From Candidatus Moraniibacteriota bacterium (lineage in GTDB: Bacteria; Patescibacteriota; Minisyncoccia; Moranbacterales; GWC2-37-73): a stretch of 64,000 bases of DNA. Below are positions 41,229 to 60,067 of the stretch, one piece after another. Each line of letters begins with the position of its first letter. Position 1 is the first letter of the stretch. Made by a program: the position numbers and the translations under genes. The stretch is taken from positions 41,908 to 105,907 of the forward strand of contig DAOOTD010000002.1 of assembly GCA_035390125.1 (NCBI GenBank), in the 5' to 3' direction. The notes below the pieces were generated by a model, which saw nothing but the letters and a program-made list of their open reading frames with translations, had not been told where the DNA came from and did no database searches.

Positions 41229-41300
41229 GCGGGTATCGTATAGTGGCTATTATACGTCCTTGCCAAGGATGAGACGGCAGTTCGATTCTGCTTACCCGCT
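41229..41300 (+). tRNA. tRNA-Gly (anticodon GCC)
   Basis: Anticodon stem-loop cgtcc-ttGCCaa-ggatg. The 3' end overlaps the stop of the recombinase gene. Confidence 0.85.
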
Positions 41301-42899
41301 CAGAAGTTCAAAAACGGCCTTAGATTGGGCTGTTTTTGTTTTATCTAAGGCAAAATTAGTCAGTTCTAACCTTGGACATTCTGCCTTTATGGTTTCCAAT
41401 CCTTTTTCAATGAGTTGGTATTGTTTTCTTAGTGTGATATCTAGCACGCCATCCTTGAGGGTGAAATCTGATCCCAAAGCCCGTAAAATGTTGGTTTTCT
41501 CGGTATAATCACCAACATTAAAATTATGTTTTGCATATACCGCAAACTTGAATGTTTTTTCGGTCAGTTCTAACCATTCATCGGCTCGCTGGTTTATGTC
41601 ATCTAAAGATTGTTGAATCTTGTCTTTTTCTTTCAGTAGGGTCGCTTTTCTTTCCTTGAATTCGTCATCGCCAATTAAATCCTTGTTGGCATTTTCGGGT
41701 GAGATGTAGATATCTAACAACTTATCAATCCTATCTTGGCATTTCTTCAATGCTTTTTGTTGGTTTTCAATCATTATGTTCCTATTATCAACTTCGAGTT
41801 CGTTATCTCGCCTTAAGATTTTCAAAGCATAATCCAAAAAACTTTTAGGTATAGTGATTTTATCCAACTTATCTGCAATCTGCTTGTTGATGTCGTTGTA
41901 GGTAATGGATTTTTGTTTGCAATTAACATTCAACTTCTTTCTAGTGCAGTTATGATAGATGAATGTTCGGACAACATTTTCGGTTTTTATATGCTTCAGT
42001 TTTAGTTGGGTAGTAATATGACATCCGCACTCACCGCAACGGATAGTTCCTCGATAGGGAAGAATTTTATGTTTTGTTTGTGGCTTAGTTTTATTTCCCA
42101 AAAGTCCTTGAACATAATCAAATTCAGCTTCGGTTATCATCGGTGTGTGATTTCCTTCATAAACCTTACCAGTCCATTCATATTTTCCACAATAAAAAGG
42201 ATTGGTAAAAATATCGTATCCATGGCTAGCGTGCAGTTTTATTTCTTGCCCCTTGCACATTCTTCGCAAACCCCATTCATTGTTGGCAATCTCGATAATT
42301 TTTGAAACAGAATAGTCGCCAGTTAACATCAAGTCCCACATCTTACGAACAATGGGGAATTTTACTTCATCTACAAAAATCTGTTTTTTACCTTGGTCTG
42401 TTCCTTTGTCATTTTTATATCCTATCGGTGCACGACCAGGTCTCCAGCCTTGCTCTGCCTTATTCAACAGTCCTCGTCGGACATCTTTTCCTAAATCAAT
42501 AACATATTGGTTCGCCATTCCAAATTCAACACTCATCATTATCACATTGTCTACGGTTTTGTATTCTCTGCCGACTGTTTGGATGGACTGGATGAGTCCT
42601 TGTTGAAGCAACCACATTATCTCACCACCATCAACGGGATTTCTTGCTAGACGATTTAACTTCCAGCATATAATTCCATCTGCCTTGCCTTGTTTAATAG
42701 CAGACAGCATTTTGTTGAATTGTTCCCGACCTGGCTTTTTCGCTGATTTGCTCTCTTGAAAAACACCGACAATTTTAACATCGAGATGGCGTGCTAATTT
42801 TTCCAGTTCTTTTTTCTGGCTTTCAATAGATTGCGTTTGACGATCTTCCGCTTCGGTACTTTTGCGAAGATACATCAGATATTTTTGTTTTGTTTCCAT
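41292..42899 (-). CDS. large serine recombinase (phage-integrase type)
   Basis: N-terminal resolvase catalytic domain (YLRKSTEAEDRQTQSIESQ with the nucleophilic Ser), recombinase domain, zinc-ribbon CGECGCH...C and a C-terminal coiled-coil. The stop overlaps the tRNA-Gly 3' end. Confidence 0.85.
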   Translation of the reverse strand: METKQKYLMYLRKSTEAEDRQTQSIESQKKELEKLARHLDVKIVGVFQESKSAKKPGREQFNKMLSAIKQGKADGIICWKLNRLARNPVDGGEIMWLLQQGLIQSIQTVGREYKTVDNVIMMSVEFGMANQYVIDLGKDVRRGLLNKAEQGWRPGRAPIGYKNDKGTDQGKKQIFVDEVKFPIVRKMWDLMLTGDYSVSKIIEIANNEWGLRRMCKGQEIKLHASHGYDIFTNPFYCGKYEWTGKVYEGNHTPMITEAEFDYVQGLLGNKTKPQTKHKILPYRGTIRCGECGCHITTQLKLKHIKTENVVRTFIYHNCTRKKLNVNCKQKSITYNDINKQIADKLDKITIPKSFLDYALKILRRDNELEVDNRNIMIENQQKALKKCQDRIDKLLDIYISPENANKDLIGDDEFKERKATLLKEKDKIQQSLDDINQRADEWLELTEKTFKFAVYAKHNFNVGDYTEKTNILRALGSDFTLKDGVLDITLRKQYQLIEKGLETIKAECPRLELTNFALDKTKTAQSKAVFELLSG

Positions 42900-42932
42900 A
42901 TTAGTGTGTACAGAATTTATGCCACGGATTGA

Positions 42933-43115
42933 TTATATTATGTTCTCTCTTCTTGTACATGGCTCAGAGTCGACCTTTCTGAGAGGTTTATATATATGTC
43001 TAATCATTTCAACCAAAGTTTCCGCACATTCCAAAGACTCCTCGGATGACAGTTTTTGTCCGAATTCTTTTTCATAAAGTGCTTGAAATTTTTTTGCGTC
43101 AGCCTTGGTTATCAT
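42933..43115 (-). CDS. small acidic protein upstream of the integrase (candidate directionality factor / regulator)
   Basis: 60 aa, co-directional and 33 nt from the integrase start. Palindromic operator-like sites lie upstream. Confidence 0.35.
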   Translation of the reverse strand: MITKADAKKFQALYEKEFGQKLSSEESLECAETLVEMIRHIYKPLRKVDSEPCTRRENII

Positions 43116-43221
43116 TTTAATTTAATAAAATAAGATAGATGAATAGGATATTTATAGATTTAGGATATGTATAGTTCCTCTTATTTAGAGGTATATATAG
43201 ACTAAAGTAAAAATTATAGTA

Positions 43222-43263
43222 TTTACTATAGTAAGGAGGAGAATTATCCTTACTATAGTAAGG
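43222..43263. promoter_or_regulatory. two tandem copies of the palindrome CCTTACTATAGTAAGG
   Basis: ttactatagtaagg-aggagaattat-ccttactatagtaagg, in the 150-bp gap upstream of the integrase operon. Confidence 0.5.
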
Positions 43264-43266
43264 TTA

Positions 43267-43575
43267 TTATTCTTCAACGATTTCAATACTGGCATAGTCA
43301 TAAGCGTCTAAAATAAATTTTCTGATTTTATTCCAAATCGCTTTTTCAAAAAGACAGAATTTGAATCCAGCTTTCTGTGGCATCGTGACATTTAATCCCT
43401 CAAACTTGCTTTTCCAAACACCAAAGCCAGTGACCGTAAAGTATTCTCCAGTTTCAAACTTGAAACTCACATTGGCGTTGGCAAGCAAGTTCTCGTGCTT
43501 TCCTTTAATCATGTTTATTTTTATCGACACTTCTTTAAGATGTAGGTCGAGCGGGTAGGTGGTAAATGGTTTCAT
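43267..43575 (-). CDS. hypothetical protein
   Basis: 102-aa ORF with no recognisable motif. Confidence 0.4.
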   Translation of the reverse strand: MKPFTTYPLDLHLKEVSIKINMIKGKHENLLANANVSFKFETGEYFTVTGFGVWKSKFEGLNVTMPQKAGFKFCLFEKAIWNKIRKFILDAYDYASIEIVEE

Positions 43576-43592
43576 AATTTTCGGTAATTTTG

Positions 43593-43808
43593 TTAAGATG
43601 GTTCAGTTTTATTTTTTTGTTTAGATTTTTCTGCCATTATTCTGTCGACAGACTCATTAAAATAACTCAACATATCAGAGGCAACTTTCCAAAAATCGTC
43701 ATCGTTAAAATTTGCATTAGGTATTAGTTTCATGTACTTTACAACAAATTCATCAAGGTCAGCCCATAAGTTTTCTTCAATTGACAGTTCTTCATTGATT
43801 GATTCCAT
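43593..43808 (-). CDS. hypothetical acidic small protein
   Basis: 71 aa. Tightly spaced with the 43267-43575 gene. Confidence 0.35.
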   Translation of the reverse strand: MESINEELSIEENLWADLDEFVVKYMKLIPNANFNDDDFWKVASDMLSYFNESVDRIMAEKSKQKNKTEPS

Positions 43809-44043
43809 AAAATTAAAATTTAATAATTAGACACACACCCCGATTTTTCAGTGGGAGAACGACATTTTGGGGAATTTTTCATAAAATATTCTTTAAATTA
43901 TTTTTTATTTTTTCATTATATTTAACCCACTATTTGATAAAGAATTAGTGGGTTGCTAGTGGTTTAAAAAAACAAAAAAAGACTTTTAATAAAGTCTTTT
44001 GATACAACTAAAGAAGTTTTAAGTTTAGGTATAAACCACTCTT

Positions 44044-44844
44044 TTACCTATAAGATAGCCATGCTTTATCGCTGTCAATTTTAAATTTAAATTTTTTATT
44101 AACATCATGTGCTGATAACAATCTCTGCAACTCTTTTATTGTTCCCTCAATTTTAAGTTTCTTGTAATTTTTTTTCAAATATTCATCAGCTTCATCCGAT
44201 GCATTTTTTTTGGTAAATCTCTTTATTTTTTCAAATAAATATTCCAAAGTTCGTGCTGTTCCAATAGGATTACAAAAAGATTTTAATAATTGATACTTGG
44301 CTGTTTCAGCGTTACCAACTTCAATATTTTTCTTATCAACCTTTAAATAACCGATCCCATTTTTTTCAAATGTGGCAACTTTTATTTTACTTGTTTTTTC
44401 CTTCAATTTTTCAATTTTATTGTTTCCTATTCGATAACTGGAATATTCTAATATTTTATTCAAGCTTTCTTTGAATTTACCAGCCTCGTTTTTATTTGCC
44501 TTAAACAATAATGGATGCGTGGATTTACAAATAATGTTAAATAGTATTTTCTTGTTTTTCTTGCATGAATAATAAAGCAATATATTATGAAGTAGTTTTT
44601 GTCTTGAGTTGAAATAATTTGTCTTTAAAGATTCAGCCATATAATTGAGTGTAGATATATGGCCATATAAATCTTTTTTTACACCGCATTCATTTAAAAA
44701 ATCGCCCATTTTTATGTGAGATTTTAAACTTTCTATGGCATTTATTTTTTTAGCAATAAGTTCCAATGACTGCTCATTTAATATACAGCCTTCTTTTTTA
44801 AGGGAGCTTACTGTTATTGCTAATTCAATTTCATTTTTAAACAT
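44044..44844 (-). CDS. hypothetical protein (Lys-rich)
   Basis: 266-aa ORF with no recognisable domain. Confidence 0.45.
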   Translation of the reverse strand: MFKNEIELAITVSSLKKEGCILNEQSLELIAKKINAIESLKSHIKMGDFLNECGVKKDLYGHISTLNYMAESLKTNYFNSRQKLLHNILLYYSCKKNKKILFNIICKSTHPLLFKANKNEAGKFKESLNKILEYSSYRIGNNKIEKLKEKTSKIKVATFEKNGIGYLKVDKKNIEVGNAETAKYQLLKSFCNPIGTARTLEYLFEKIKRFTKKNASDEADEYLKKNYKKLKIEGTIKELQRLLSAHDVNKKFKFKIDSDKAWLSYR

Positions 44845-44924
44845 ATATTTATTATTGATATTTTCTCACTAGATAGGCTTAAAAGCAAGATAAATGTTTA
44901 CTTTTAGCCATTTTTATATTACAT

Positions 44925-45078
44925 TGTAAGTGGTACCATACTCATATAGACACTGAGAGTAATCTCAGTAATTTTGCTTCATCACGCCTTTAAGCGGGCG
45001 GCTCGGCGCACATGATGGGGCATTTCGGTGTCTTTTGAGTGTGGTACCCGTCGGGTCGTCCACTCAAGCGGAACTTCT
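44925..45078 (+). ncRNA. GC-rich structured element; candidate ncRNA or cis-acting site
   Basis: A 13-bp long-range helix (GGTACCATACTCA at 44928 pairs with TGAGTGTGGTACC at 45035) encloses local hairpins. GC is about 50 percent versus about 28 percent around it. Ends at a strong terminator. Confidence 0.3.
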
Positions 45079-45112
45079 CGACGACTTAATTATTAAGTCG
45101 TTTTTTGTTTTT
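45079..45112 (+). terminator. rho-independent terminator
   Basis: acgacttaattattaagtcgt followed by T6. Confidence 0.75.
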
Positions 45113-45138
45113 AAAAAACAAATTACACAATAAAAAAT

Positions 45139-45489
45139 ATGGGTGTAATTGAATCAATCGGAGCTAACCGAGCAAGAATCATTTTCGATGATTTTTGTGT
45201 TAGATTATTTTTAAAATATAAAGGAAACTATTGCTCTGATGTTAGAATATGGAAATTATCAAAATCCAATATACTTTTTGGCATGTTTAATAGTAAAAAT
45301 TTATACTGGGCTGTTTGTGATGAGGCGGCCAATTCTTTACACGGTTGGTTTTATAAAGAAGGCGATCTACTTAAGTCATTGGCGCATAGAATAGAGCAAT
45401 GCTCTAATGAGAATGAACTGAAAAGATTGTGTCTTAATCTGGAAAATATAATTGAAAAAGGAATTCCATTAGATATAGGAGAATTTTAA
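45139..45489 (+). CDS. hypothetical protein
   Basis: 116-aa ORF, Cys-containing, no motif recognised. Confidence 0.45.
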   Translation: MGVIESIGANRARIIFDDFCVRLFLKYKGNYCSDVRIWKLSKSNILFGMFNSKNLYWAVCDEAANSLHGWFYKEGDLLKSLAHRIEQCSNENELKRLCLNLENIIEKGIPLDIGEF

Positions 45490-45490
45490 T

Positions 45491-45700
45491 ATGGAAAATA
45501 AAAAACATCGTCTCCAATCAAATTTCGAATTTATTGCTGAAACATCCTTGCGAGTAGTGCGAGCGTTTTCATATTTCTTTATGGTTGCGATACCCCTTTT
45601 GAATTATAAAGATCTGCGATTTTCAATTAAAACTATCTTGATTTGCTTGAGTTTGGTTTTTATTTCTAATAGACTACTTGGCAAAATTAGAAGCAAATAA
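45491..45700 (+). CDS. hypothetical small membrane protein
   Basis: 69 aa with one or two hydrophobic helices. Start is 2 nt after the previous stop. Confidence 0.35.
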   Translation: MENKKHRLQSNFEFIAETSLRVVRAFSYFFMVAIPLLNYKDLRFSIKTILICLSLVFISNRLLGKIRSK

Positions 45701-46130: not shown

Positions 46131-47045
46131 ATGGCATTATTTAGCATACAAGGCGAGAAAACTAAAAAGATTTTATCTAAAAGCTTAGATTTAGAAAAAA
46201 AACTTCAAAAATTATTCGAGAATAATCTTGAAGACGTTTTGAATATCACTTTTTTAGCCCATGAATATTCCACAAGTTTTGGCGGAAGAATTGATACATT
46301 GGGAATAGATAAAAACGGATCTCCCGCAATAATAGAATATAAAAAGAACCAAAATGATAATGTAATTAATCAAGGACTCTCCTATTTGCGATGGCTTTTA
46401 GATCATAAGGCTGATTTTGAAATATTATGCAGAAATAATAAAGTTGCAGTTGAAATTGATTGGGATTCGCCAAGGGTTATCTGTATAGCAGAAAACTATA
46501 ATAAATTTGATATTGACACTGCGGATATTTTGCCTATAAATATTGAATTGCTAAGATATAGGATCTATGAAAACGATATTTTATCTCTAGACATAGAAAA
46601 TTATCAAAAAGTAAGAATTTCAACTTCTGGCATATTAAAGAAAGCAAGAAATCAAAAAGAGAAGCAGAATGTTCTTCAGAAAAATTATTTATTAGAAGAT
46701 CATCTGAAAAATGCGCAAAAGGAAATAAAATTACTTTTTTATAAGTTGCGAGAAAAGATCACAGCACTTGATGAAAATATTATTGAAGAGGCTAAGGCAA
46801 AGTATATCGCCTATAAAACTTCAACTAATTTTGTTGATATTGTGGTGCTTGGCAATAGTTTAAAAATATTTTTAAATGTGAAAAGTGGAAAACTTATTGA
46901 TAAAAATTCAATAGCCAGAGACTTAACTAAGCCAAAATCCGTTGGTCATTGGGGGAATGGTGATTATGAGGTAAAATTGCAAAGCGAAAATGATTTAGAA
47001 AAAGTTTTTGACCTAATAAAACAAAGTTATGGTTATAATAAATAA
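46131..47045 (+). CDS. PD-(D/E)xK nuclease-fold protein (NucS/DUF91-like core) with C-terminal extension
   Basis: GRIDTLGIDKNGSPAIIEYKKN...NVINQGLSYLRWL carries the D...D...ExK...Q..Y signature. Overlaps the downstream gene by 17 nt. Confidence 0.6.
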   Translation: MALFSIQGEKTKKILSKSLDLEKKLQKLFENNLEDVLNITFLAHEYSTSFGGRIDTLGIDKNGSPAIIEYKKNQNDNVINQGLSYLRWLLDHKADFEILCRNNKVAVEIDWDSPRVICIAENYNKFDIDTADILPINIELLRYRIYENDILSLDIENYQKVRISTSGILKKARNQKEKQNVLQKNYLLEDHLKNAQKEIKLLFYKLREKITALDENIIEEAKAKYIAYKTSTNFVDIVVLGNSLKIFLNVKSGKLIDKNSIARDLTKPKSVGHWGNGDYEVKLQSENDLEKVFDLIKQSYGYNK

Positions 47046-51368: not shown

Positions 51369-51439
51369 GATAAAGCACCTTGTAGGGTTGATTCAATTGT
51401 ATTAGGATATTAATATGTTTAGACAATATTTTTTACCAT

Positions 51440-51522
51440 AAATCCAGTTCTAACCGTATTAACTAGCCCGCTCAGGTATAAATTTACGGCTTTGTTAAGC
51501 CGTATTTTTGTTGTGGTATAAT
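51440..51522 (+). promoter_or_regulatory. cassette module A: 19-nt boundary motif + palindromic operator ACGGCTTTGTTAAGCCGT + extended -10 TGGTATAAT
   Basis: Operator 51486-51503, TATAAT 51517-51522. Same module recurs at 52209, 53200, 55932 and 57671. Confidence 0.7.
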
Positions 51523-51547
51523 AGAAATATAAAATTAAAATAAAAAA

Positions 51548-52171
51548 ATGCTAAACATTGATTCTGCAAATAAATTAAATCCAAAAGCTATATATTTATT
51601 TGCACTTAGATCATTTATCGCTTGGAGCTTACTAATGCTTGTTGTCGTCGGTCTTACAATATTTGTTATAAACATTTTTAATCAGAAAGAAATTATCTTA
51701 TCATCTAGCACAAAAGTTGGAGTTGGAATTCTAAATGAATACGACTATAGCAAAGCATTTCTTTTATTAATTTGGTTATTGCCAACAATAATTTTGTCTA
51801 TCCTTAGTTCGCTAATTTGGGGATTTCTAGTCTGGAAAAATTATACTTTTGAAATAACCGAAAATTCGATAAATATCAACTATGGAATTATAAAAAAAAC
51901 AAAAGATGTGATTTTTTATTTGGATATTGAAAAAATTGAATCTGAAAAACTAATAGCAGAAACATTAACAGGATTGGTAGCTCTAACTTTCTATTGTTCT
52001 GAAAATAAAACAAGCTCATTTCATAAAATAGTAAGAAATAGAATTATGCAAGCAACTTATTCAAGTGATTTTGTTGATGGCAGATCAATTCCAGGACTTT
52101 CGCCTGAAGAAGCATTAAAATTGAAAGAGACAATCTTGTCGTTCATAGGAAACAAGATAAATAAGAATTAA
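51548..52171 (+). CDS. membrane protein with bacterial PH-like (YdbS/YdbT-type) topology
   Basis: Two N-terminal TM helices then a roughly 120-aa soluble domain. Similar in architecture to bPH_2/DUF304 proteins. Confidence 0.4.
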   Translation: MLNIDSANKLNPKAIYLFALRSFIAWSLLMLVVVGLTIFVINIFNQKEIILSSSTKVGVGILNEYDYSKAFLLLIWLLPTIILSILSSLIWGFLVWKNYTFEITENSININYGIIKKTKDVIFYLDIEKIESEKLIAETLTGLVALTFYCSENKTSSFHKIVRNRIMQATYSSDFVDGRSIPGLSPEEALKLKETILSFIGNKINKN

Positions 52172-52208
52172 CAATGCATTTAAAATTTTAAATAAGGAAT
52201 TCTCCCCT

Positions 52209-52291
52209 AAACTCATTTCGAACATCATCTGCTAATGGGCTCACCTATGAATTTACGGCTTTTTTAAGCCGTATTTTTGTTGTGGTATAAT
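52209..52291 (+). promoter_or_regulatory. cassette module B (operator ACGGCTTTTTTAAGCCGT + TGGTATAAT)
   Basis: Operator 52254-52272, TATAAT 52286-52291. ATG lies 6 nt after the -10, so leaderless geometry. Confidence 0.7.
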
Positions 52292-52297
52292 GAAAAC

Positions 52298-53182
52298 ATG
52301 AATTCTATGAATCCAGAATGGCAAAAGCAAAAGATAGAAAAACAAGAAGCCAAAATTAACATTGGAGATGTTTATTTTAGTGAAGGCTTAAAATCTGTTT
52401 TTGAGAAAGAGGAGTTTGAGAATGAAATACTAAAAATAAATAAGGAAATCGAAAAATACTTGGGAGAGAATAAAAATTCAGCCGTTTACGATTTTAGGAT
52501 ATATGACAACAGAAAAGAATATGAAGAATATTTCAGAACCAATTATCCAGAAAAATCTGATTATATGGAAAATGACATGGTTTTTTATTCTCCAGATGAA
52601 AAACATAATAAAAATGTTATAGCTAAGTTTATGGAGCAAGCGACCTTAGATCCAAATGATTTAAAGATTCGAAAATATCTCGAAAAAGAAAAAATCAAAT
52701 TCGATGAGTTAGAGGCTTTGTCTAAGCAGAATTATAAAAATAATATTTATCCAACAATAGCACATGAATTAACTCATTCTCACCCATTTTTTAAAGGAAT
52801 GGATAATAAATCATCTAGAAGTAAATGGGAACAAGAAATGGTGTGTGTGTTTATTGACCAAAAAATGTGGGAGGAATATGTTCCATCCTATGGCAAAATG
52901 ATAAGAACAAAAGCAAAAGATCAATCTTTAGGTAGAGATTTGTTTGATGAAATCATTAAAGATTTTGAAGAAGGTGATTTTCAGGTTGAAGACTGGGAAA
53001 GGCTTTTTTACAACTTTTTGGAAAACAGACATGGCAAAGAAAAATTAAAAGATTTTTGGAATATTTTGGCCGAACTAAAAGACAAAGCTAATTTTGAACG
53101 ATGCTATGAAAAAATTTTTAGAGAAAATTTGAAAGATGCTATGATTATATTTCAAGAAAGAATAACAACAGATAAAATTTAA
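52298..53182 (+). CDS. HExxH-motif protein (putative zinc metallopeptidase)
   Basis: IAHELTHSHPFF. The track ORF start at 52277 is an artefact that reads through the promoter (TTG TTG TGG TAT AAT). Confidence 0.5.
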   Translation: MNSMNPEWQKQKIEKQEAKINIGDVYFSEGLKSVFEKEEFENEILKINKEIEKYLGENKNSAVYDFRIYDNRKEYEEYFRTNYPEKSDYMENDMVFYSPDEKHNKNVIAKFMEQATLDPNDLKIRKYLEKEKIKFDELEALSKQNYKNNIYPTIAHELTHSHPFFKGMDNKSSRSKWEQEMVCVFIDQKMWEEYVPSYGKMIRTKAKDQSLGRDLFDEIIKDFEEGDFQVEDWERLFYNFLENRHGKEKLKDFWNILAELKDKANFERCYEKIFRENLKDAMIIFQERITTDKI

Positions 53183-53199
53183 ATAAAGCTCTTATTCAC

Positions 53200-53310
53200 A
53201 AACCCAGTTCGAACGTCATCTACTAAGGGGCTCAGTTTTCTAAATTATGGCTTGCTAAAGCCATTTTTTGGTATTAGACATTGACATAATTATTAAAAAT
53301 ATACTATCAT
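53200..53310 (+). promoter_or_regulatory. cassette module C (boundary motif + variant palindrome ATGGCTTGCTAAAGCCAT + TTGACA promoter)
   Basis: Boundary motif 53200-53218, palindrome 53247-53264, consensus -35 TTGACA at 53281. Confidence 0.55.
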
Positions 53311-53388
53311 CAAATATTAGTTTTAGTTCGTTAATATAGATTAATAAATAATTTTACAAAAACAAAAAATATCGAAAGGAGAGAGGAA

Positions 53389-53961
53389 ATGAAATTTAAA
53401 ATACTCTGTATTCACGATACCAAAGGTATCAATTCTAATGAAACAGTAGCAGACTACCACCCGTTAACACTAGTGGATGTCTCAATGCTGATTCACGTGG
53501 CGTATGCCTTTAGAAAAAATGACCAAAAAGTTGCTGACATTCAAGCGCGACTCATTCAGGGGGTTATAGGTATGACCTGTCCATTTCCTGAAAAAGGTGA
53601 AATTAACGAAAGGGCAATAATAATTAAACGATTGTTTATGGAGGCAATGAGAAATAATAAACCCCCAGTTTATTCACAGTTAGCTCTACAACTTTTCGAA
53701 AACATGATGTTTGAAACAGACGCTGATATATTTACGCCAAAGTCTTCAGAAGATGACATGCTTACAAAAAGCATTGAGGAACTCGAATTACCTATTCGTG
53801 CATACAGATTTCTCAAAAGCATCAACATTAATACAATTGGAGAGTTAGTTCAAAAGACAGAAACAGAAATACTTAAGGAAAGAAATGCAGGCCAAAAGAT
53901 ACTTAGCCAAATAAAAGATGCTCTCATTGAGCATGATCTGTATTTCGCCGTAAGAACATAA
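53389..53961 (+). CDS. protein with C-terminal RNA polymerase alpha-subunit CTD-like (helix-hairpin-helix) domain
   Basis: SIEELELPIRAYRFLKSININTIGELVQKTETEILKERNAGQKILSQIKDALIEHDL aligns position-by-position with the bacterial RpoA alpha-CTD (IEELELSVRSANCLK...GELVQRTE.ELLK.PNLGKKSL.EIKD.L). The roughly 120-aa N-terminal domain is unknown. Confidence 0.6.
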   Translation: MKFKILCIHDTKGINSNETVADYHPLTLVDVSMLIHVAYAFRKNDQKVADIQARLIQGVIGMTCPFPEKGEINERAIIIKRLFMEAMRNNKPPVYSQLALQLFENMMFETDADIFTPKSSEDDMLTKSIEELELPIRAYRFLKSININTIGELVQKTETEILKERNAGQKILSQIKDALIEHDLYFAVRT

Positions 53962-54045
53962 AAAAATCCAATTTGATATTAAAAAAAGCCGAAAACCTGG
54001 ATTCAAGTCGTAGGCTTTTTTATTTTAAATAAAACATTTTTTCAT

Positions 54046-54064
54046 AAACCCAGTTCAAACGTCA
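54046..54064 (+). repeat. boundary motif AAACCCAGTTCAAACGTCA (copy D, without operator module)
   Basis: Identical 19-mer directly after the stop of the alpha-CTD-like gene. Downstream promoter differs (TTGACA at 54098 and 54118). Confidence 0.8.
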
Positions 54065-54217
54065 TATACTTAAGTAATTATTTAATAACACTTTAAATTG
54101 ACATTTAGGCTGTGATCTTGACAAATTAGCGCAGAAAGAGGACAATAGAAAACTAATTAGAGGAAAGTTTTTAGTAATTTTAAAACAAGTTCGAAATTCG
54201 AACAGAGAGGTGCAATA

Positions 54218-54613
54218 ATGAAAGAAAAGGTGAAAAATGCATGGTTTTTTGGAAAAGACAGCCCGGAAAAGAACGTTTTGCTTTTGTATTGTATCCTGCT
54301 GCAATTCCATACAAGCGGGTACAAAGACAGAGAGGCTCCCCTGAGAATTCTTAGCAAAAAGGAGCGGAACTTTGTTAATGAGAAAAAAAAGGAGGTCAGA
54401 GAAGATGGTGAAGGAAGAATACCATTCAGATTTTTTCAACTGATAGTGAAAAAAGGAGATGCATTATTGCAAGATGAATGTGTAATGATCCACTTTTGTC
54501 GCTACAAAAACAACTCTTCAATGATTGAGGAACTGAAAAAAGTGGGGAGCAAAAACAACTTCCTGCTGATTAAAAAGAAAAAAAACCTGTTCATATTGAA
54601 ATTCGAAGAATAA
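54218..54613 (+). CDS. hypothetical protein
   Basis: GAGAGG RBS 7 nt upstream of ATG. 131 aa. The overlapping minus-strand ORF 54062-54439 is rejected. Confidence 0.45.
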   Translation: MKEKVKNAWFFGKDSPEKNVLLLYCILLQFHTSGYKDREAPLRILSKKERNFVNEKKKEVREDGEGRIPFRFFQLIVKKGDALLQDECVMIHFCRYKNNSSMIEELKKVGSKNNFLLIKKKKNLFILKFEE

Positions 54614-54626
54614 AGGTTGAAAAAGT

Positions 54627-54678
54627 AGAGCCTCATGAGATAAACACTTTCTCATGAGGCTCTTGTTCTTTGTGTTTT
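54627..54678 (+). terminator. rho-independent terminator (12-bp perfect stem)
   Basis: gagcctcatgag-ataaacacttt-ctcatgaggctc followed by a T-rich run. Confidence 0.7.
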
Positions 54679-54726
54679 ACAATGGTAACATTAGGTAGTA
54701 TTGTAAAAATTAATGACTTAAATCTT

Positions 54727-55812
54727 ATGCCAAGACAAGAAAAATTCGAAACATTTGTGGGCAAAACCTACAAGGAAGGTAGTTTGGAAAAAAGAAAAGA
54801 AATAAGAACTGACTATGAAAATATAGAAGATCAAATAAATTCTTATTATGAAAAGAAAATCACCGCAAAAAATTTAGTTGATAACTTGGGGCTAGTTATT
54901 CTTGGTTCACAAGGTGAGCATGCCAGCACTCAAATTTATGCCTATGAAAATTTGATAAAAACAATTGCTGAAACAGAAAAAGAAGAAGACATAGACATAA
55001 TAGCTGAAGAAATTTTTTATAGCGCAGCAACTGAAAATAATCCAATGAAAAAAGCTTATTTGTTGGGGATATTAAATAATTTTTCTAATCTGGAAAGACT
55101 GGAAGAATTGTTTGGTAAAAAAGATGAAACAAACAATTCAGCAGATGTAAAAATTACAGAAGAAATAAATATAATTCAAAAAATCAGAAAAGCTGCACTA
55201 AGAATAAAAAAAGAAGGGAAAGTTTCCGAACAAGAGGAAGAAGTGTTAAATTATGTCCTAGATAATTTTCCAAGAGATAATAACGAGTGCGAATCCGCTC
55301 GGTTGGTGTCAGCTTATTATAGCAAGGAAAATTATGCGACAAGAATGCCTGCGCTAGGAAAACAAAAATTGCTCGAAGATGAAGTGTGGAAATGTTTAGA
55401 AGGAAACGGAATTCCTCGCTATGTGTATGCTCTTCCGGCGGGATGGCATCCTTCTGGCGAAAAATTAGATGAGGCTGATAGGTTTGGTATTAATTTGACT
55501 CAACAAGCGGCTATTTTCGAAGGAAAAGAAAAAATATTTATTGAATACGACATGAATCCACGATTATCGCGGCTTTATAATAGAAGAATAAAATATTATA
55601 GAGATCAAAAAAATCTCAAGAAAGTTGAAGAACTAGAAAATGCTTTAAAATTGAGGGTGTGGAGAGAAATTGAAAAAGATCCTGAAGCTATGGAAACATT
55701 CCAAAATATTGATAATATAGTTATTATCAAAAAAACAATTCGAGATTACGCAGACGATGTTGATATTAATAATTTAATGGAAAAAGACTTCCGTGATGAT
55801 GCAGTTCGATAA
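54727..55812 (+). CDS. hypothetical protein
   Basis: About 360 aa, Glu/Lys-rich, no motif recognised. Start taken at MPRQEKF just after the terminator. Confidence 0.45.
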   Translation: MPRQEKFETFVGKTYKEGSLEKRKEIRTDYENIEDQINSYYEKKITAKNLVDNLGLVILGSQGEHASTQIYAYENLIKTIAETEKEEDIDIIAEEIFYSAATENNPMKKAYLLGILNNFSNLERLEELFGKKDETNNSADVKITEEINIIQKIRKAALRIKKEGKVSEQEEEVLNYVLDNFPRDNNECESARLVSAYYSKENYATRMPALGKQKLLEDEVWKCLEGNGIPRYVYALPAGWHPSGEKLDEADRFGINLTQQAAIFEGKEKIFIEYDMNPRLSRLYNRRIKYYRDQKNLKKVEELENALKLRVWREIEKDPEAMETFQNIDNIVIIKKTIRDYADDVDINNLMEKDFRDDAVR

Positions 55813-55931
55813 TTAGCTTAATGTTTTAAATCTAAATTCTATTTTTAAATAAAAAACTTCCATTTTGGGAGTTTTTTATTAATATTTATTTATATTTAGA
55901 GCTTCTGAATAAAAGCAGATAGGGCACATTT

Positions 55932-55969
55932 ACTGCTTTGTTAAGCCGTATTTTTTGTTGTGGTATAAT
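55932..55969 (+). promoter_or_regulatory. cassette module E (operator ACTGCTTTGTTAAGCCGT + TGGTATAAT)
   Basis: One-mismatch palindrome 55932-55949, TATAAT 55964-55969. Confidence 0.65.
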
Positions 55970-55993
55970 GAAAAATGTAAATTGATAAATAAT

Positions 55994-56512
55994 ATGGAAA
56001 TCAAAAATAAGCTTCTATTTAAAACTGAAGTAAAAAAGAAAATAGATAGATTTATCAAAGAATTCCCTATATATTTTTTTATAAACATCGTTATTAACAT
56101 TTCTCTCATAGTAATGATATTGGGAAGTGCCTTTTTTGTAGCTTTTAGCCTTGAAATGCTCGGCACCGGAATACATGCATATATAATCTTATTTATTGCT
56201 TTTTTATCTCTCGTTTTCAGAATAACCATAAAAGGCTTTTTTCGAAATATTAAAATTCTGAAAAGCATTCAAGCGGGCGACTATGAATTTGGAATTGAAA
56301 ATCATGAGCTGGATAATGCGATAGAATTTATTGAAGACATGCCGATAAAAAAAGACGAAGTTGAAAAAATGAGAGTAGCTCTTTCTTTTAATAAATTGAT
56401 TGATGTACTTGAGTACGCGCGTATTATAAAATGTAGCAAAGGCTTATATGATGTTGATTTGGTTTTTAAATATAGAGTAGAAAAAGTTATAGAAGATTGT
56501 ATTAAAATGTAA
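55994..56512 (+). CDS. hypothetical membrane protein
   Basis: Three N-terminal TM helices and a cytoplasmic C-domain. The track start 55955 reads through the promoter (the same MLWYNE artefact). Confidence 0.5.
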   Translation: MEIKNKLLFKTEVKKKIDRFIKEFPIYFFINIVINISLIVMILGSAFFVAFSLEMLGTGIHAYIILFIAFLSLVFRITIKGFFRNIKILKSIQAGDYEFGIENHELDNAIEFIEDMPIKKDEVEKMRVALSFNKLIDVLEYARIIKCSKGLYDVDLVFKYRVEKVIEDCIKM

Positions 56513-56534
56513 ATTTGTAAACTAATAGAAAAAC

Positions 56535-56855
56535 ATGATTCCAATAGAATTTCTCAGGCAGTTTCGCGTTGGTGAATATGCAATCTTCGATCTAGCAGTA
56601 TCTTTTCTAGGAATTTATTTATTATCCTCTTTGCTGTCAAAAATGTTTCTTAAAATAAGAATCAATGTTCCTAAACATAACTGGTTGTTTCTAACTTTGC
56701 CAATTGGCATTGTTGCTCATCTGATTTTCGGACATATGACACCCATGACTAAAAATTTCCTGGATATTCATGGTCATTATGTTCTAAAAAGCTTAATTGT
56801 AGGTCTGTTGATTCTTGGTTTGAGGAATATAAAAATAATTAAGAAAAATAAATAA
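56535..56855 (+). CDS. hypothetical small membrane protein
   Basis: 106 aa with three hydrophobic helices. Confidence 0.4.
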   Translation: MIPIEFLRQFRVGEYAIFDLAVSFLGIYLLSSLLSKMFLKIRINVPKHNWLFLTLPIGIVAHLIFGHMTPMTKNFLDIHGHYVLKSLIVGLLILGLRNIKIIKKNK

Positions 56856-56878
56856 TCTTTTTCCGATAGAATATTTTC

Positions 56879-57649
56879 ATGGAAAAAATAATTATCAAAA
56901 ACAGGAAAGATCAAAACGTTGTAGTTTTGTTAGAAAGAGCTGCAAATCAAAAAGGATTGGCATTTGTTATGCATGGACTAGGGGGTTTTAAGGAGCAAGA
57001 ACATATTGAAACATTTGCCGATGCTTTCAAGAAAAAGAACTATACCGTAATTAGATTTGATACAACAAATACAATAGGTGAAAGCGATGGAAACATGGTT
57101 GACGCAACACTTACTAATTATTATGAAGACTTAGAAGATGTGATTGATTGGGCGAGTAAACAAAATCTTTATCAACAACCATTTGTTTTGTGTGGTCATA
57201 GTCTTGGTGCAATATCCTCGGCTTTATATGCTGAAAAATATCCAGAAAAAATAAAAGCTCTCGCTCCTATTTCCACGGTGATTTCCGGAAAGCTAACAGA
57301 AGAAACGCCAAATTTCATGGAAATTGGAAAAGAATGGGAAGAAAAAGGCATAAGAGAATGGGAAAGCAAAAGTCAGCCAGGTTTAGTTAAAAAATTAAAA
57401 TGGTCGCATGTTGAAGACAGAAGGAAATACGATTTGCTTCCAGCGGTTAAAAAATTAAAAATGCCTGTACTTTTAATTGTTGGTGATTTAGACGATACCA
57501 CTCCACTTAATCAACAAGAATTGCTATATAATAGTTTACCCGGGAAGAGAGAGCTCCATATTATAAGGGGCGCAGAACATACTTTTAGAGAAAAAGAGCA
57601 TCTCGATGAAATATATAAAATATTTTTGAGGTGGATTGAAAGTCTATAG
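56879..57649 (+). CDS. alpha/beta-hydrolase fold protein (esterase/lipase-like)
   Basis: Nucleophile elbow GHSLG. Downstream Asp/His in the usual order (VGDLDD..., GAEHTF). Confidence 0.7.
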   Translation: MEKIIIKNRKDQNVVVLLERAANQKGLAFVMHGLGGFKEQEHIETFADAFKKKNYTVIRFDTTNTIGESDGNMVDATLTNYYEDLEDVIDWASKQNLYQQPFVLCGHSLGAISSALYAEKYPEKIKALAPISTVISGKLTEETPNFMEIGKEWEEKGIREWESKSQPGLVKKLKWSHVEDRRKYDLLPAVKKLKMPVLLIVGDLDDTTPLNQQELLYNSLPGKRELHIIRGAEHTFREKEHLDEIYKIFLRWIESL

Positions 57650-57670
57650 TCTAAATGAAGCATTTTCTCT

Positions 57671-57754
57671 AAACCCAGTTCAAACGTCAGATAATAATGG
57701 GCTCAGGTATGAATCTACAGCTTTGTTAAGCTGTATTTTTTGTTGTGATATAAT
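57671..57754 (+). promoter_or_regulatory. cassette module F (boundary motif + operator ACAGCTTTGTTAAGCTGT + TGATATAAT)
   Basis: Motif 57671-57689, perfect palindrome 57717-57734, TATAAT 57749-57754. ATG 6 nt downstream (leaderless geometry). Confidence 0.7.
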
Positions 57755-57760
57755 TTAATT

Positions 57761-58249
57761 ATGAAGAAAAAAACGAAAGAAGCTTTTGATTGGATAATTA
57801 AAATATTCAGAGATAATAATATACCCTTTCAATTATCCGGAGGCCTTGCTGCTAAAATTTATGGTTCGCCAAAAGATTTGTGGGATATTGATTTTGATAT
57901 TCCAGATAGCTGTTTTTCCAAGGTGAGAAATTTAGTTTCCAAATATGTTATATTTGGTCCTAAAAAAACAACCGCCGAAGGTTTTGATTGTATGCTTTTA
58001 AGGCTGAATTATCATGGGCAGCAAATTGATGTGAGCGGAAATTGTATAAAAATTTTTGATAAGGTTAAAAAGAAATGGGTCAAAGATAATACTGACTTTG
58101 AAAGATCAGCCAAAAAAAGAGTGTTCGATAGAATTGTTCCGGTGATATGTCCGGAAGATCTGCTAAAGTATAAAAGCAAACTCTCAAGAAAGGCGGATTC
58201 AATAGACATAAAGGCTTTAAAAAAATATCTATTACAAAAAAATAAATAA
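57761..58249 (+). CDS. minimal nucleotidyltransferase-fold (Pol-beta superfamily) protein
   Basis: hG[GS]-x9-DhD pattern: LSGGLAAKIYGSPKDLWDIDFDI. Confidence 0.5.
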   Translation: MKKKTKEAFDWIIKIFRDNNIPFQLSGGLAAKIYGSPKDLWDIDFDIPDSCFSKVRNLVSKYVIFGPKKTTAEGFDCMLLRLNYHGQQIDVSGNCIKIFDKVKKKWVKDNTDFERSAKKRVFDRIVPVICPEDLLKYKSKLSRKADSIDIKALKKYLLQKNK

Positions 58250-58355
58250 AGTATTTCTATCTTAAAAGGATAGTGTCATCAACTCTTGTTTTATAAATTA
58301 TGCAATTTTTGTTATAATAAAGGCGTAAGAATAAAGGCAATAATCAAATAAGCAT

Positions 58356-58643
58356 ATGAATAAACCAAAAGTAAATTATGTTATAGATTTTTTAGCTTTT
58401 ATTTCTTTTATCATCACCGCCCTCTCGGGTTTAGTGATAAAGTTTTTTATGCCTAGTGGAGTGAGGCAGGGCAGATTCCAGGAATTTCTTGGTGTCCAAA
58501 AAGGAGCTTGGTCAGAAGTCCACGATTTTTTTGGAATACTGATGATCATTCTTGTTTTGGTTCATTTTATCCTGCACTGGGACTGGATTGTTTGTATGAC
58601 GAAAAATATATTAAAATCAAATAATTGTGAAGTTAAAAAATAA
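58356..58643 (+). CDS. hypothetical small membrane protein
   Basis: Two TM helices with conserved His (HDFFG...HFILHWDW). Confidence 0.4.
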   Translation: MNKPKVNYVIDFLAFISFIITALSGLVIKFFMPSGVRQGRFQEFLGVQKGAWSEVHDFFGILMIILVLVHFILHWDWIVCMTKNILKSNNCEVKK

Positions 58644-58660
58644 TAATTAATAACAAATCA

Positions 58661-59326
58661 ATGAAAAAGACACTACTCATTGCTTTCCTTCTGATGTTTG
58701 GTTTGGTCATCCAAGCTCAGGCGGCAAGTACTAATGCCAATCAGGGGAATAAAACGGGGCAGGAAAATTCCCAGGGGAATCAAAACGGTAATACTGTCCA
58801 AGTTCAAGAAAAAAATCAGGTTCAAAATCAAGGGGAAGAAACTCAAGTTCAGACGCAAGAACAGAATACAGTCCAGACAAAGGATAAAAATGAAAACAAA
58901 AAACAAGACAATGCCGAGGTGCACAGAAGCGCAGTAGCTAACTTTGTGCAAAATTTATTATCTGTAGCTGATCGGGAAGGCGGAATTGGTCAGGAAGTGA
59001 GAGTGATTGCTCAGCAGCAAAATGATATGAAAGACAGAGCAGCGGATCTGATATATGCCGTGGAAAACAGAAACAAAGTGAAAACATTTTTTATCGGTAC
59101 CAGCTATAGAAATGTCGGGGAACTAAGGAGCCAAATGGTGCAAACAAGGAATCAAGTTGAGCAATTGAAAAGATTGATAGAAAAAACCACCAACGAACAA
59201 GACAAGACGGAGTTGCAAAACCAGATTCAAACAATGGAGCAGGAACAAGCAAGGATTAATGATTTTATAACTCAAAATGAAAGCAAATTCAGCTTGTTTG
59301 GATGGGCGGTAAAAATGTTTAGATAG
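58661..59326 (+). CDS. secreted Gln/Asn-rich coiled-coil protein
   Basis: Signal peptide MKKTLLIAFLLMFGLVIQAQA. Q/N/T-rich low-complexity region then a coiled-coil. Confidence 0.5.
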   Translation: MKKTLLIAFLLMFGLVIQAQAASTNANQGNKTGQENSQGNQNGNTVQVQEKNQVQNQGEETQVQTQEQNTVQTKDKNENKKQDNAEVHRSAVANFVQNLLSVADREGGIGQEVRVIAQQQNDMKDRAADLIYAVENRNKVKTFFIGTSYRNVGELRSQMVQTRNQVEQLKRLIEKTTNEQDKTELQNQIQTMEQEQARINDFITQNESKFSLFGWAVKMFR

Positions 59327-59344
59327 GTTTGCTTTTAATAAATA

Positions 59345-59368
59345 AAAAACACCCGAAAGGTGTTTTTT
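59345..59368 (+). terminator. rho-independent terminator
   Basis: aaaaacacccgaaaggtgtttttt. Confidence 0.85.
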
Positions 59369-59509
59369 ATTATGTCTCAAAAATCCAATTCTATAATTAA
59401 TCTGCTTATGTATAAAAATAGAAGAGAAAATTTTTCATTGACAGTTTAATATTTTAGACTAAACTCAAAGCAGTTATTTGTATCTATTTTTTAAAACAGG
59501 AGGTTGAAA

Positions 59510-59671
59510 ATGGCAACTAGAGAAATAGCAAAAAATGAAGACAGGGAAATAATCAAAAAAATAAATCGTCTTCAAGCAGATCATGAAAAGGAGGAGGAAG
59601 AGCTTTGTTTTTGTGATATATGTGCCTTTTCCAGAGCTCTAAAGGGCGGTCTTGAAAAAAGAGCAAAATAA
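59510..59671 (+). CDS. small (53 aa) protein with CxC..C motif, absent from the ORF track
   Basis: Consensus SD AGGAGG 6 nt upstream. Product MATREIAKNEDREIIKKINRLQADHEKEEEELCFCDICAFSRALKGGLEKRAK. Followed by a hairpin. Confidence 0.4.
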   Translation: MATREIAKNEDREIIKKINRLQADHEKEEEELCFCDICAFSRALKGGLEKRAK

Positions 59672-59689
59672 AAATCAAAGTTCTGCACA

Positions 59690-59727
59690 GGGGCTATTTG
59701 TATGTTTACAATAGCCCCTCATTTTTA
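59690..59727 (+). terminator. hairpin terminator
   Basis: aggggctatt-tgtatgtttaca-aatagcccct then a T-rich run. Confidence 0.55.
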
Positions 59728-60067
59728 ATTAAATTTATACAAAGAGAATATTTTTTAGAAATACTTTATTTAAGCCACGAAAAGTGTATTTTTTATTAAT
59801 TCTCAAAATAAAATGGCTTATTTAAGCAAAAAATATCTTTTAAGTGTTGACCATATAATTATAATGTGCTAATATTAGTTGTTGACAATAATAAACAATA
59901 AAGATCCCTAGATTAAGGGATTTTTGGTTTAAATAAGTGTTGACTCGCTTATTGCAGAAGCATAACTGAACTAAAACCTACACTTCTACGTGAAGATTTT
60001 TGTTTAGCGAATTAGTTATAGCGGAGTAAATGCAAATCAATAGCGAATAACAATTAAGATATATTGC

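Follow-up and report, generated by a model that had tools for sequence, protein, structure and literature searches.

We analyzed a 64,000-nt stretch of a Candidatus Moraniibacteriota genome (the window; GenBank assembly GCA_035390125.1, contig DAOOTD010000002.1, positions 41,908 to 105,907), in which a large serine recombinase (LSR) gene abuts the 3′ end of a tRNA-Gly(GCC) gene and is followed by accessory genes and by an array of small gene cassettes. The G+C content of the window is ~32%. Among species-representative genomes, the nearest relatives by the L19 protein are metagenome-assembled genomes of Candidatus Moranbacteria/Moraniibacteriota (Patescibacteria), which share at most 88% amino acid identity. 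Many relatives have the same left flank (UbiA, a 144-aa gene, RluD, L19 and the tRNAs Leu-Val-Phe-Met-Gly) and the same right flank (a 3D-domain gene, tRNA-Cys, tRNA-Leu, UDG and a metallophosphoesterase gene), and in some of them one tRNA of the array is replaced or missing. We consider it likely that an integrative element beside a separate cassette array explains the locus. Features and their coordinates are given in Table 1, and loci of relatives carry three-digit L numbers.

The recombinase has the domain architecture expected of an LSR. The Resolvase domain (PF00239, E 1.8e-20) covers residues 9-151 and includes a YLRKST motif, in which the serine nucleophile, S14, is invariant in the family alignment. 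A Recombinase domain (PF07508, 2.8e-08) is followed by a zinc ribbon (PF13408, 1.7e-05; 25.5 bits against a cut-off of 25.3), and five cysteines (C288, C291, C293, C318 and C327) are invariant in the same alignment. The protein also matches a PHROG integrase family (9.5e-65). No phage or plasmid recombinase of the curated collections is more than 27% identical to it, and IMG/VR yielded a single match at 23% identity. It is the only recombinase in the element and is of the serine type; a tyrosine recombinase of the IntI type is lacking there. Directly upstream and on the same strand is a 60-aa gene (h60), a homologue of which lies upstream of the recombinase and on its strand in 33 of the 45 family loci with at least 4 kb of upstream sequence. 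Based on this co-occurrence, h60 is a candidate accessory or directionality factor.

The recombinase gene, with its TAA stop codon at 41292-41294, overlaps the end of tRNA-Gly by 9-10 nt, in agreement with the 9 nt given in the initial annotation. The last three codons and the stop (L-S-G-*) are the reverse complement of TTACCCGCTCAG, which is the 3′ acceptor strand of tRNA-Gly plus three bases. ARAGORN and Rfam agree that this tRNA closes the five-tRNA array, as had been proposed. It is intact and 100% identical to the tRNA-Gly of relatives whose site is free of a recombinase (L013, L016, L018, L021, L030 and L010).

The interval between tRNA-Gly and the 3D-domain gene is 18.8 kb in the window and 1.1-7.9 kb in nine species-level relatives (e.g., 1.1 kb in L021, 1.5 kb in L022, 2.0 kb in L016 and 7.9 kb in L018). 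None of the 25 window proteins encoded in this stretch was found there in the nine relatives with both flanks. The initial annotation, which proposed an integrated element at this site, had named a gene order common to all relatives as the counterevidence; with 0/25 genes shared, the order is therefore not conserved. Recognizable core genes do resume on the right, as it had described (the 3D-domain gene, tRNA-Cys, tRNA-Leu and UDG), and all of the features that it reported were found in place.

We place the element at ~41295-51475, a length of 10.17 kb (~10.2 kb). The 9-bp sequence CCCGCTCAG occurs at both ends (41295-41303 and 51467-51475), and is the only direct repeat of at least 9 nt derived from the last ~25 nt of the tRNA between 41.3 and 62 kb. 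The T-arm string GCAGTTCGAT also recurs once, at 55801. Long copies of the tRNA 3′ end (allowing up to 6-7 errors) were found neither in the window nor in the tRNA-Gly-associated relatives. The right copy of the repeat is preceded by the P arm CCATAAATCCAGTTCTAACCGTATTAACTAG, and the two together form attR, which is also the left half of the first repeat unit of the cassette array.

Comparison with relatives identified the same end elsewhere. In L082, whose recombinase is 62% identical and is also on tRNA-Gly, the string aaAGTTCTAACCGcgtgaACTAGCCCGCTCAc (i.e., AGTTCTAACCG-N5-ACTAGCCCGCTCA) lies 7.54 kb from the tRNA; its counterpart in the window, ccAGTTCTAACCGtattaACTAGCCCGCTCAg, conforms to the same AGTTCTAACCG-N5-ACTAGCCCGCTCA string and lies 10.16 kb from its tRNA. 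In both cases, a terminator and then TTGTTGTGGTATAWT follow. In L036 and L037, which have no recombinase, the same P arm with CCCGCTCAA is located 1.85 kb from tRNA-Gly, and a second P arm is identical to that of the window at 28/28 positions. A weaker candidate was detected in L084, 10.4 kb from tRNA-Gly(TCC).

The arms themselves are arranged as in known serine integrase sites. When the CAGTTC of the P arm is compared with the CAGTTC of the tRNA T loop, an offset of +5 gives 8 of 14 matches and other offsets give at most 4, i.e., relative to the core, the motif of the element arm is displaced outward by 5 bp compared to that of the tRNA. The shift of the ZD motif between attP and attB half-sites is the same 5-bp difference (Rutherford et al., 2013, PMC3783163). 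By hand reading, P and P′ share an inverted TCTAA(GG)CCGT.TT, 30 bp apart and centered on CCCGC|TCAG. The crossover would thus fall on the CT of CCCG-CT-CAG, which is the last acceptor base and the discriminator. A crossover at this position would leave the mature tRNA unchanged and would account for the short repeat. The right end, which the initial annotation regarded as impossible to set from the sequence, is set at 51467-51475 by the 9-bp repeat, the conserved P arm, the 5-bp offset and the symmetry.

With both ends defined, the sequences of attL and attR follow for this member of the family, as do those of the inferred attP and attB, which provides testable substrates and possibly new orthogonal integrases. 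The reconstructed attB has the layout tRNA, terminator, TG-extended -10 promoter, gene, which matches the recombinase-free sites in L016, L021, L029 and L030. Its predicted junction is ...GATTCTGCTTACCCGCTCAGGTATAAATTTACGG..., and the sequence expected after an empty tRNA-Gly is GTATAAATTTACGG.... The reconstructed attP joins ~51420-51475 to 41304-41345, with the predicted junction ...AACCGTATTAACTAGCCCGCTCAGAAGTTCAAAAACGG.... Because attP spans the 3′ end of the recombinase gene, integration would swap its last codons: the predicted protein of the circular form has 550 aa, 15 residues more than the 535 aa of the integrated form.

The association with tRNA 3′ ends extends across the recombinase clade. 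A search of JGI metagenomes with an alignment of the window recombinase and those of L020 (69% identity) and L017 (56%), both of which likewise overlap the 3′ end of tRNA-Gly, revealed at least 498 relatives. We retrieved the best 80 loci (42-70% identity), of which 58 were testable, with 170 nt or more of sequence past the point where the recombinase match ends. A convergent tRNA that starts between -20 and +100 nt from this point is present in 40 of the 58. As the background density is 0.14 tRNA per kb, this adjacency is not due to chance. The 40 loci comprise 17 tRNA targets, isoacceptors for 12 amino acids, including Gly (GCC, TCC and CCC), His, Asn, Trp, Gln, Ser, Asp, Arg, Lys, Pro and Glu. 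Longer repeats are present in two members of the family: a 23-bp direct repeat of the tRNA 3′ end 7.5 kb away in L102 (tRNA-Gln) and an 18-bp repeat 5.9 kb away in L128 (tRNA-His).

Within the boundaries defined here are the restriction-modification (RM)-like module and the RNase H fusion that the initial annotation had assigned to the element. The PDC-S18 candidate matches profile PDLC04946 with an E-value of 1.8e-97 over residues 2-301 of 304, and the NucS-like match of its N-terminal region is weak. Adjacent to it is h439, which has ~190 homologues in Candidate Phyla Radiation (CPR) and Omnitrophota genomes, all unannotated and lacking a Pfam domain. On an Omnitrophota contig, a controller-like HTH_3 gene precedes the homologue, and two methyltransferases run convergent to it; Adlerbacteria contigs also show a convergent pair of methyltransferases and, at a distance of 5 kb, a large serine recombinase. 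The AlphaFold model of h439 (predicted local distance difference test score 86) gave weak matches to YaeQ and to restriction-endonuclease-like folds (E 0.02-0.5). From its linkage to two methyltransferases in two unrelated contexts, h439 is the probable endonuclease of the module, and its family appears to be an undescribed family of restriction endonucleases. Across L175 and L176-L178 (Omnitrophota and several CPR lineages), members of this family consistently face two convergent methyltransferases.

The cargo of related elements is also defense-like. In L017, a possible restriction endonuclease ORF lies downstream of a cytosine-5 DNA methyltransferase-like gene, and L020 encodes a 900-aa ATPase (both read from ORF translations); precomputed Pfam matches identify Abi_C and SNase in L173. 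The distal part of the L020 contig (L020:18900-20441) is G+C-rich with long overlapping ORFs, unlike the rest, and may be foreign DNA or indicate a chimeric contig. In the window element, capsid, terminase, tail and lysis genes were not found, the PHROGs matches being to integrase, RNase H and one unknown family only, and Pfam families for relaxases, coupling proteins and type IV secretion were not among its proteins.

Two repeat pairs were noted between the genes of the element. Direct repeats of 36 nt (78% identical; AAGGTTTTA..ATCGTGTTTGGTCG) at 45699-45734 and 45981-46016, 282 nt apart, lie in the 430-nt gap upstream of the PDC-S18 gene and are possible operator or iteron-like sites. A 26-nt inverted repeat (85% complementary; 43960-43985 and 45095-45120) brackets h266. 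Its right arm overlaps a terminator-like hairpin, and it may correspond to the paired palindromic operators mentioned in the initial annotation.

Table 1. Features of the tRNA-Gly locus. Coordinates are those of the window.
Feature	Position	Strand	Remarks
tRNA array Leu(gag)-Val(tac)-Phe(gaa)-Met(cat)-Gly(gcc)	40857..41301	+	ARAGORN, Rfam agrees; kept with upstream L19 across Moranbacteria relatives
tRNA-Leu(gag)	40857-40938	+	ARAGORN
tRNA-Val(tac)	40949-41025	+	ARAGORN
tRNA-Phe(gaa)	41041-41113	+	ARAGORN
tRNA-Met(cat)	41142-41214	+	ARAGORN
tRNA-Gly(GCC)	41229..41301	+	integration target, intact; T arm and acceptor end are the B arm of attL
LSR, 535 aa	41292..42899	-	Pfam Resolvase, Recombinase, Zn_ribbon_recom
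attL common core CCCGCTCAG	41295..41303	+	inferred crossover CT at 41299-41300
P′ arm	41304..41345	+	terminator-like hairpin (41309-41338); inside recombinase C-terminal codons; kept in all tRNA-Gly-associated relatives
h60, 60 aa	42933..43115	-	directly upstream of recombinase
h102	43267-43575	-	backbone; common to L020 and several other family loci
h71	43593-43808	-	backbone; common to L020
h266	44044-44844	-	backbone
h116 and h69a	45139..45700	+	small ORFs
PDC-S18 candidate defense protein	46131..47045	+	NucS-like N-terminal region and DUF5655; PADLOC PDLC04946
h439, 439 aa	47029..48348	+	probable type II restriction endonuclease
two tandem type II N6/N4 DNA methyltransferases	48337-49128 and 49134-49898	-	firm matches
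h69b	50199-50408	+	
RNase HI fusion	50466-51368	+	RNase HI domain at residues 12-171 and ~130-aa C-terminal extension; last gene inside element
attR	51436..51475	+	P arm CCATAAATCCAGTTCTAACCGTATTAACTAG and core CCCGCTCAG (51467-51475); left half of repeat unit 1
cassette array	51415..57760	+	outside the recombinase element
repeat unit U1	51415-51529		
cassette bPH	51548-52171		
repeat unit U2	52184-52298		
cassette h301	52277-53182		
repeat unit U3	53176-53290		
cassette RNAP-alpha-CTD protein	53389-53961		
repeat unit U4	54021-54128		truncated
cassette h131 and h380	54218-55812		
repeat unit U5	55885-55975		degenerate
cassette h185, h106, alpha/beta hydrolase	55955-57649		
repeat unit U6	57647-57760		
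h162, DUF4405, h221, h55	57761..59671	+	without repeat units
3D-domain gene (+), tRNA-Cys, tRNA-Leu(taa), UDG (-)	60068..61527		conserved right flank

To the right of attR, six units of ~115 nt separate cassettes of one to three genes. A full unit consists of TTTAAATAA..CATAAACCCAGTTCGAACGTCATCTACTAAGGGGCTCAG, then a terminator hairpin, then TTGTGGTATAAT. Its parts are a P-arm-like sequence, a GCTCA core, a terminator and a promoter. Compared with the true P arm, the left arms of units 2, 3 and 6 agree at 17-20 of 32 positions and keep the same distance to a shared GCTCA core, and the score of unit 3 (20/32) was reached by none of 5000 shuffles. In a consensus fold, the terminator is the only conserved structure, and the P arm and core are kept as sequence. 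The units have no Rfam match, and this, with the lack of a conserved fold beyond the terminator, ruled out a known or structured RNA. No copies were found elsewhere in the 64-kb window, which ruled out a genome-wide intergenic repeat, and the type-B unit was not found in IMG/VR. In the alpha-CTD cassette, PF03118 (6e-17) is fused to an unassigned N-terminal region in a stand-alone protein, which has a 70%-identical homologue in the array of L172.

The initial annotation had counted this array as cargo of the element, and the distribution of the units contradicts that. Across the other recombinase loci (the 80 metagenome loci and L159 from IMG/VR), a single weak match was found (L115), and units were absent from 79/80. 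At this hot spot, units are nevertheless present in other Moranbacteria. Four single, unrelated genes are set apart by four units in L013, whose interval from tRNA-Gly to the 3D-domain gene contains no recombinase; these cassettes are wholly different from those of the window. Isolated units are present in L019 and L036-L039, and L036 has two att-like sites and no recombinase. A longer array, with approximately nine units, was identified in L172, the contig of which begins inside the array. Its cassette set and order differ from those of the window. With U for a unit, aCTD for the alpha-CTD protein and MTase for methyltransferase, L172 reads U, (126 aa) aCTD, U, U, MTase(-), U, (h106 + M23 peptidase), U, 167 aa, U, hydrolase, U, (225 aa, HisPhos(-)), degenerate U, (h131 h380), U, h162, and so on; the window reads U3, aCTD, U4, (h131 h380), U5, (h185 h106 hydrolase), U6, h162, and so on. 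Cassettes common to both share 78-95% nucleotide identity. In L008, a strain with ~97% average nucleotide identity to the window genome, the array is unchanged and 99.9% identical.

The four genes between the array and the 3D-domain gene probably belong to the chromosome and not to the element. From h162 to h55 they carry no units, are collinear in L172 with the 3D-UDG-metallophosphoesterase block and have diverged much like it (78-93% amino acid identity, compared to 80-93% for the core genes). The block from h162 to the metallophosphoesterase gene is 87.5% identical to the window at the DNA level.

These observations bear on the extent originally proposed for the element, 41229-59730 (~18.5 kb), with a right end just upstream of the 3D-domain gene. 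Such an element would fit the lack of all 25 interval genes from the nine species-level relatives, as well as the 99.9% identity of the array in L008, which exceeds the genome baseline. It would have to contain an internal attR with a conserved P arm at 51467-51475, and we found neither a tRNA-like repeat nor a P arm near 59.7 kb. Arrays of the same units occur in L013 without a recombinase between tRNA-Gly and the 3D-domain gene, and in L172 the h162-h55 genes diverge like the core while the cassettes to their left are permuted. A single 18.5-kb element is thus very unlikely, and the element that we found is ~10.2 kb long and ends at 51475.

The likeliest origin of the units would be as attachment sites left by earlier integrations at tRNA-Gly, in keeping with the tandem accretion of modules lacking recombinases that is described for the ssrA islands of Dehalococcoides (PMC3146451). 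Recent shuffling of the cassettes could be site-specific or could proceed by homology via the units. The stronger proposal, that the units are working recombination sites of a serine-recombinase, integron-like system in Moranbacteria, we regard as doubtful. If it were true, the 3′ end of tRNA-Gly would be the place where small self-promoted cassettes, each with an attP-like site, are taken up, stacked and reshuffled, and the enzyme would come, in cis or in trans, from the tRNA-targeting recombinase clade. Cassette capture of this kind would be mechanistically unrelated to IntI/attC and would operate in very small bacterial genomes.

We compared strains and contigs that carry the locus. Thirteen contigs carry the recombinase ORF intact and identical. 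Along the locus, identity to L008 varies in a mosaic: 99.9% in the array, 93.5% in h221-h55 (58.7-59.7 kb), 99% in the 3D-domain gene and tRNAs and ~77-80% in the UDG/metallophosphoesterase genes. In the region corresponding to window 60900-64000, TrmB and a radical-SAM gene (~2.2 kb) are absent from L008. An interpretation of L008 as a cross-species transfer, suggested by the high identity of the array next to a UDG region of only ~80%, was dropped, given a genome baseline of ~97% with mosaic windows of 90-99.8%. L003, a 74-kb Logan contig (SRR4244739_50047), is 100% identical to window 52899-41229 and then switches at the 5′ end of tRNA-Gly to a flank (L003:11672-12604) with a different tRNA-Met and a 235-aa gene, 75% identical to L019/L021. 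Rather than a second host, this is likeliest an assembly chimera at the tRNA, which is identical across species, and we did not count it as mobility. A contig of the size class of L003 carries the core metallophosphoesterase gene of the window. Contig counts for the exact UDG and L19 proteins were set aside as not comparable, as gene calls differ between assemblies.

Contigs from the independent assemblies ERZ795055, Ga0116155 and ERZ27257480 all end at window position 60388, and a fourth ends at 60482. Position 60388 is inside the 3D-domain gene (60068-60652) and is the start of the conserved 3D domain; the N-terminal half of the protein is poorly conserved in relatives. The shared break suggests strain heterogeneity or a shared repeat that starts inside this gene. 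Other contigs break within or just upstream of tRNA-Gly.

Several observations weigh against an integrative element beside an array of att-like units. The core repeat is only 9 bp and would be unconvincing without the comparisons to L082 and L036, and the closest relatives (L079, L017 and L020) lack an attR in the 8-10 kb available. An empty attB, tRNA-Gly followed by the unit-1 terminator, was not found in JGI metagenomes, and the attP junction was searched for in IMG/VR only and not found there. All of the 13-14 contigs with an identical recombinase or bPH have the element integrated, and this copy is thus only putatively mobile. Genes for transfer, replication and packaging were not recognized in the element. 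The P′ arm and the right arms of the units are not significantly alike (~5% of shuffles reach the score), and we thus rejected the units as full attP copies. Breakpoints between the window and L172 lie in or beside units at varied points, for example at the P-arm/core boundary (window 54072) and in other cases after the terminator T-run. Finally, the L013 units, which have an insertion of ~40 nt between the P motif and the core, were still propagated. The dissimilar right arms, the varied breakpoints and the L013 insertion all speak against working recombination sites, and the latter two favor homologous recombination over site-specific exchange for the recent shuffling.

The varied breakpoints and the spread of the L013 units despite their insertion would also fit a hot spot filled by homologous recombination after DNA uptake and anchored on the conserved flanks, with the recombinase a passenger or relic and the units terminator-promoter modules. 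The mosaic identity to L008 agrees with this, as do the breaks of three assemblies at 60388, of a fourth at 60482 and of others at or near tRNA-Gly. Such filling leaves unexplained why the recombinase stops at tRNA 3′ ends family-wide, why 18-23-bp tRNA repeats occur in L102 and L128, and why the far-end P arm, with its 5-bp offset, is conserved in related elements. A relic would also not be expected to remain an intact and identical ORF in 13 contigs. We therefore regard a hot spot of this kind as an unlikely account of the locus.

A further explanation is that the recombinase has been domesticated for host-regulated excision or inversion, like XisF and SpoIVCA. XisF is its best NCBIfam match, far below the cut-off (93 compared to 375 bits; CcrA, CcrB and CcrC are also among the matches, each far under its cut-off), and the element is fixed in every sampled contig of the strain. 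An inverted copy of the T arm just downstream of tRNA-Gly in L013 could likewise be a trace of inversion. However, the target tRNA is uninterrupted, so excision would restore nothing, the cargo is wholly different between related elements, and a family at 17 tRNA targets has the pattern of a mobile element. Domestication is thus highly improbable.

The inverted copy in L013 (L013:8895-8925) is at least 17 nt long (reverse complement CAGTTCGATTCTGCTTA) and lies ~45 nt downstream of tRNA-Gly; inverted T-arm copies are also present downstream of tRNA-Gly in L019 and L025. No recombinase match was found at the L013 locus, and the copy may be what an inversion, or an element inserted in the opposite orientation, left behind. 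Other changes affect the tRNA array itself. In the complete Moraniibacteriota genome CP064994.1 (L046), a 32%-identical serine recombinase and ~4.7 kb lie between tRNA-Leu(gag) and tRNA-Val (L046:10528-15373); we looked for a clear repeat of the tRNA-Leu 3′ end there and did not find one. In L019, L021 and L003, a ~236-aa gene replaces tRNA-Phe between tRNA-Val and tRNA-Met. More distant homologues of it (27-33% amino acid identity) are present at further loci, among them the recombinase loci L085 and L157. Elsewhere in the window, the stretches of lowest G+C content are 13001-14000 and 32001-34000 (0.22-0.26, compared to ~0.33).

In combination, the recombinase, the repeated core, the P arm, the tRNA association and the variability of the interval bear out the claim of an integrated serine-recombinase element at tRNA-Gly. 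Serine-recombinase islands at the 3′ ends of stable RNA genes are known in general; this one, from an understudied phylum, now has defined boundaries. We propose that its own LSR inserted the 10.2-kb element into the extreme 3′ end of tRNA-Gly(GCC), an event that would replace only the trailer of the tRNA and leave the mature tRNA unchanged. The attP would span the 3′ end of the recombinase gene, so that the protein would have 535 aa when integrated and 550 aa in the circle. The cargo would be defensive, comprising a putative type II RM module (h439 and two methyltransferases) and the PDC-S18 candidate, with the RNase HI fusion also carried. The array may have arisen from earlier integrations at tRNA-Gly by related recombinases, stacked in tandem, with the recombinases subsequently lost; cassettes would later have been gained, lost and permuted at unit sites or by unit-to-unit homologous recombination. 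We infer the exact crossover, the present-day activity and mobility of the element, the role of h60, the formation of the array and the means by which the element passes from cell to cell.

tRNA 3′ ends are generally seen as targets of tyrosine integrases, and well-studied serine integrases insert into protein-coding genes (in part, PMC4701971). The recombinase described here is part of a large clade at tRNA 3′ ends that has been little studied, and the locus represents one route of defense genes into small CPR genomes. Tyrosine-integrase islands at tRNAs share integration at the tRNA 3′ end, a tRNA kept intact by a duplicated 3′ segment, and defense or accessory cargo. They differ in recombinase superfamily and mechanism, and the repeat is very short here because the crossover would fall at the last acceptor base and the discriminator.

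The closest analogue is the ssrA genomic islands of Dehalococcoides (McMurdie et al., 2011, PMC3146451). Features in common are a CcrB-like serine recombinase of ~540 aa on the reverse strand beside attL, a small stable RNA gene whose 3′ end is the integration target, and a conserved motif just upstream of the distal repeats, like the P arm. Downstream of their target, several ssrA islands follow one another in tandem; some lack integration genes, and these are interpreted as cis-mobilizable elements that arose by accretion (PMC3146451). However, the target here is tRNA-Gly (17 isoacceptors in the family) and not tmRNA, and the repeat is 9 bp at the acceptor/discriminator boundary instead of 20 bp from the T loop. 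The second small recombinase (DsiA) and the ParB and RecF genes were not found here, the recombinase-free modules are 0.7-1.8 kb with one to three genes, each with its own promoter, and the host is a member of the Patescibacteria.

Phage serine integrases (the Listeria A118-type LI integrase, Bxb1 and phiC31) share the domain architecture, a quasi-palindromic attP centered on a dinucleotide, and a distal motif 5 bp closer to the center in attB than in attP. The window recombinase is at most 27% identical to any phage or plasmid recombinase in the curated sets, is accompanied by no phage structural genes, and has a tRNA 3′ end instead of a protein-coding target. In streptococcal rumA integrative and conjugative elements with a single serine integrase, the repeat lies in both the target gene and the integrase gene and the 3′ ends are exchanged (Ambroset et al., 2016, PMC4701971). 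The C-terminus of the integrase changes upon integration in both cases (here, 535 compared to 550 aa); in our locus the target tRNA stays functionally intact and a conjugation module was not found. SCCmec/Ccr shares a large serine recombinase at the 3′ end of a conserved housekeeping gene and tandem or composite arrays, but has a CcrAB pair instead of a single recombinase, another target and cargo, and far larger modules.

For the cassette array, the comparison is with integrons, which share a one-directional array of small unrelated cassettes separated by related sites of ~100 nt beside a site-specific recombinase, and cassette turnover between relatives. In contrast to integrons, the enzyme here is a serine recombinase and not IntI, the units have no attC-type imperfect palindrome and conserve only the terminator hairpin, each cassette has its own promoter, and no attI or Pc was identified. 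Of the two parts of the locus, the array is the more unusual one: its spacers are att-like, it has been reshuffled between relatives, and it can serve to test integron-like assembly by serine recombinases.

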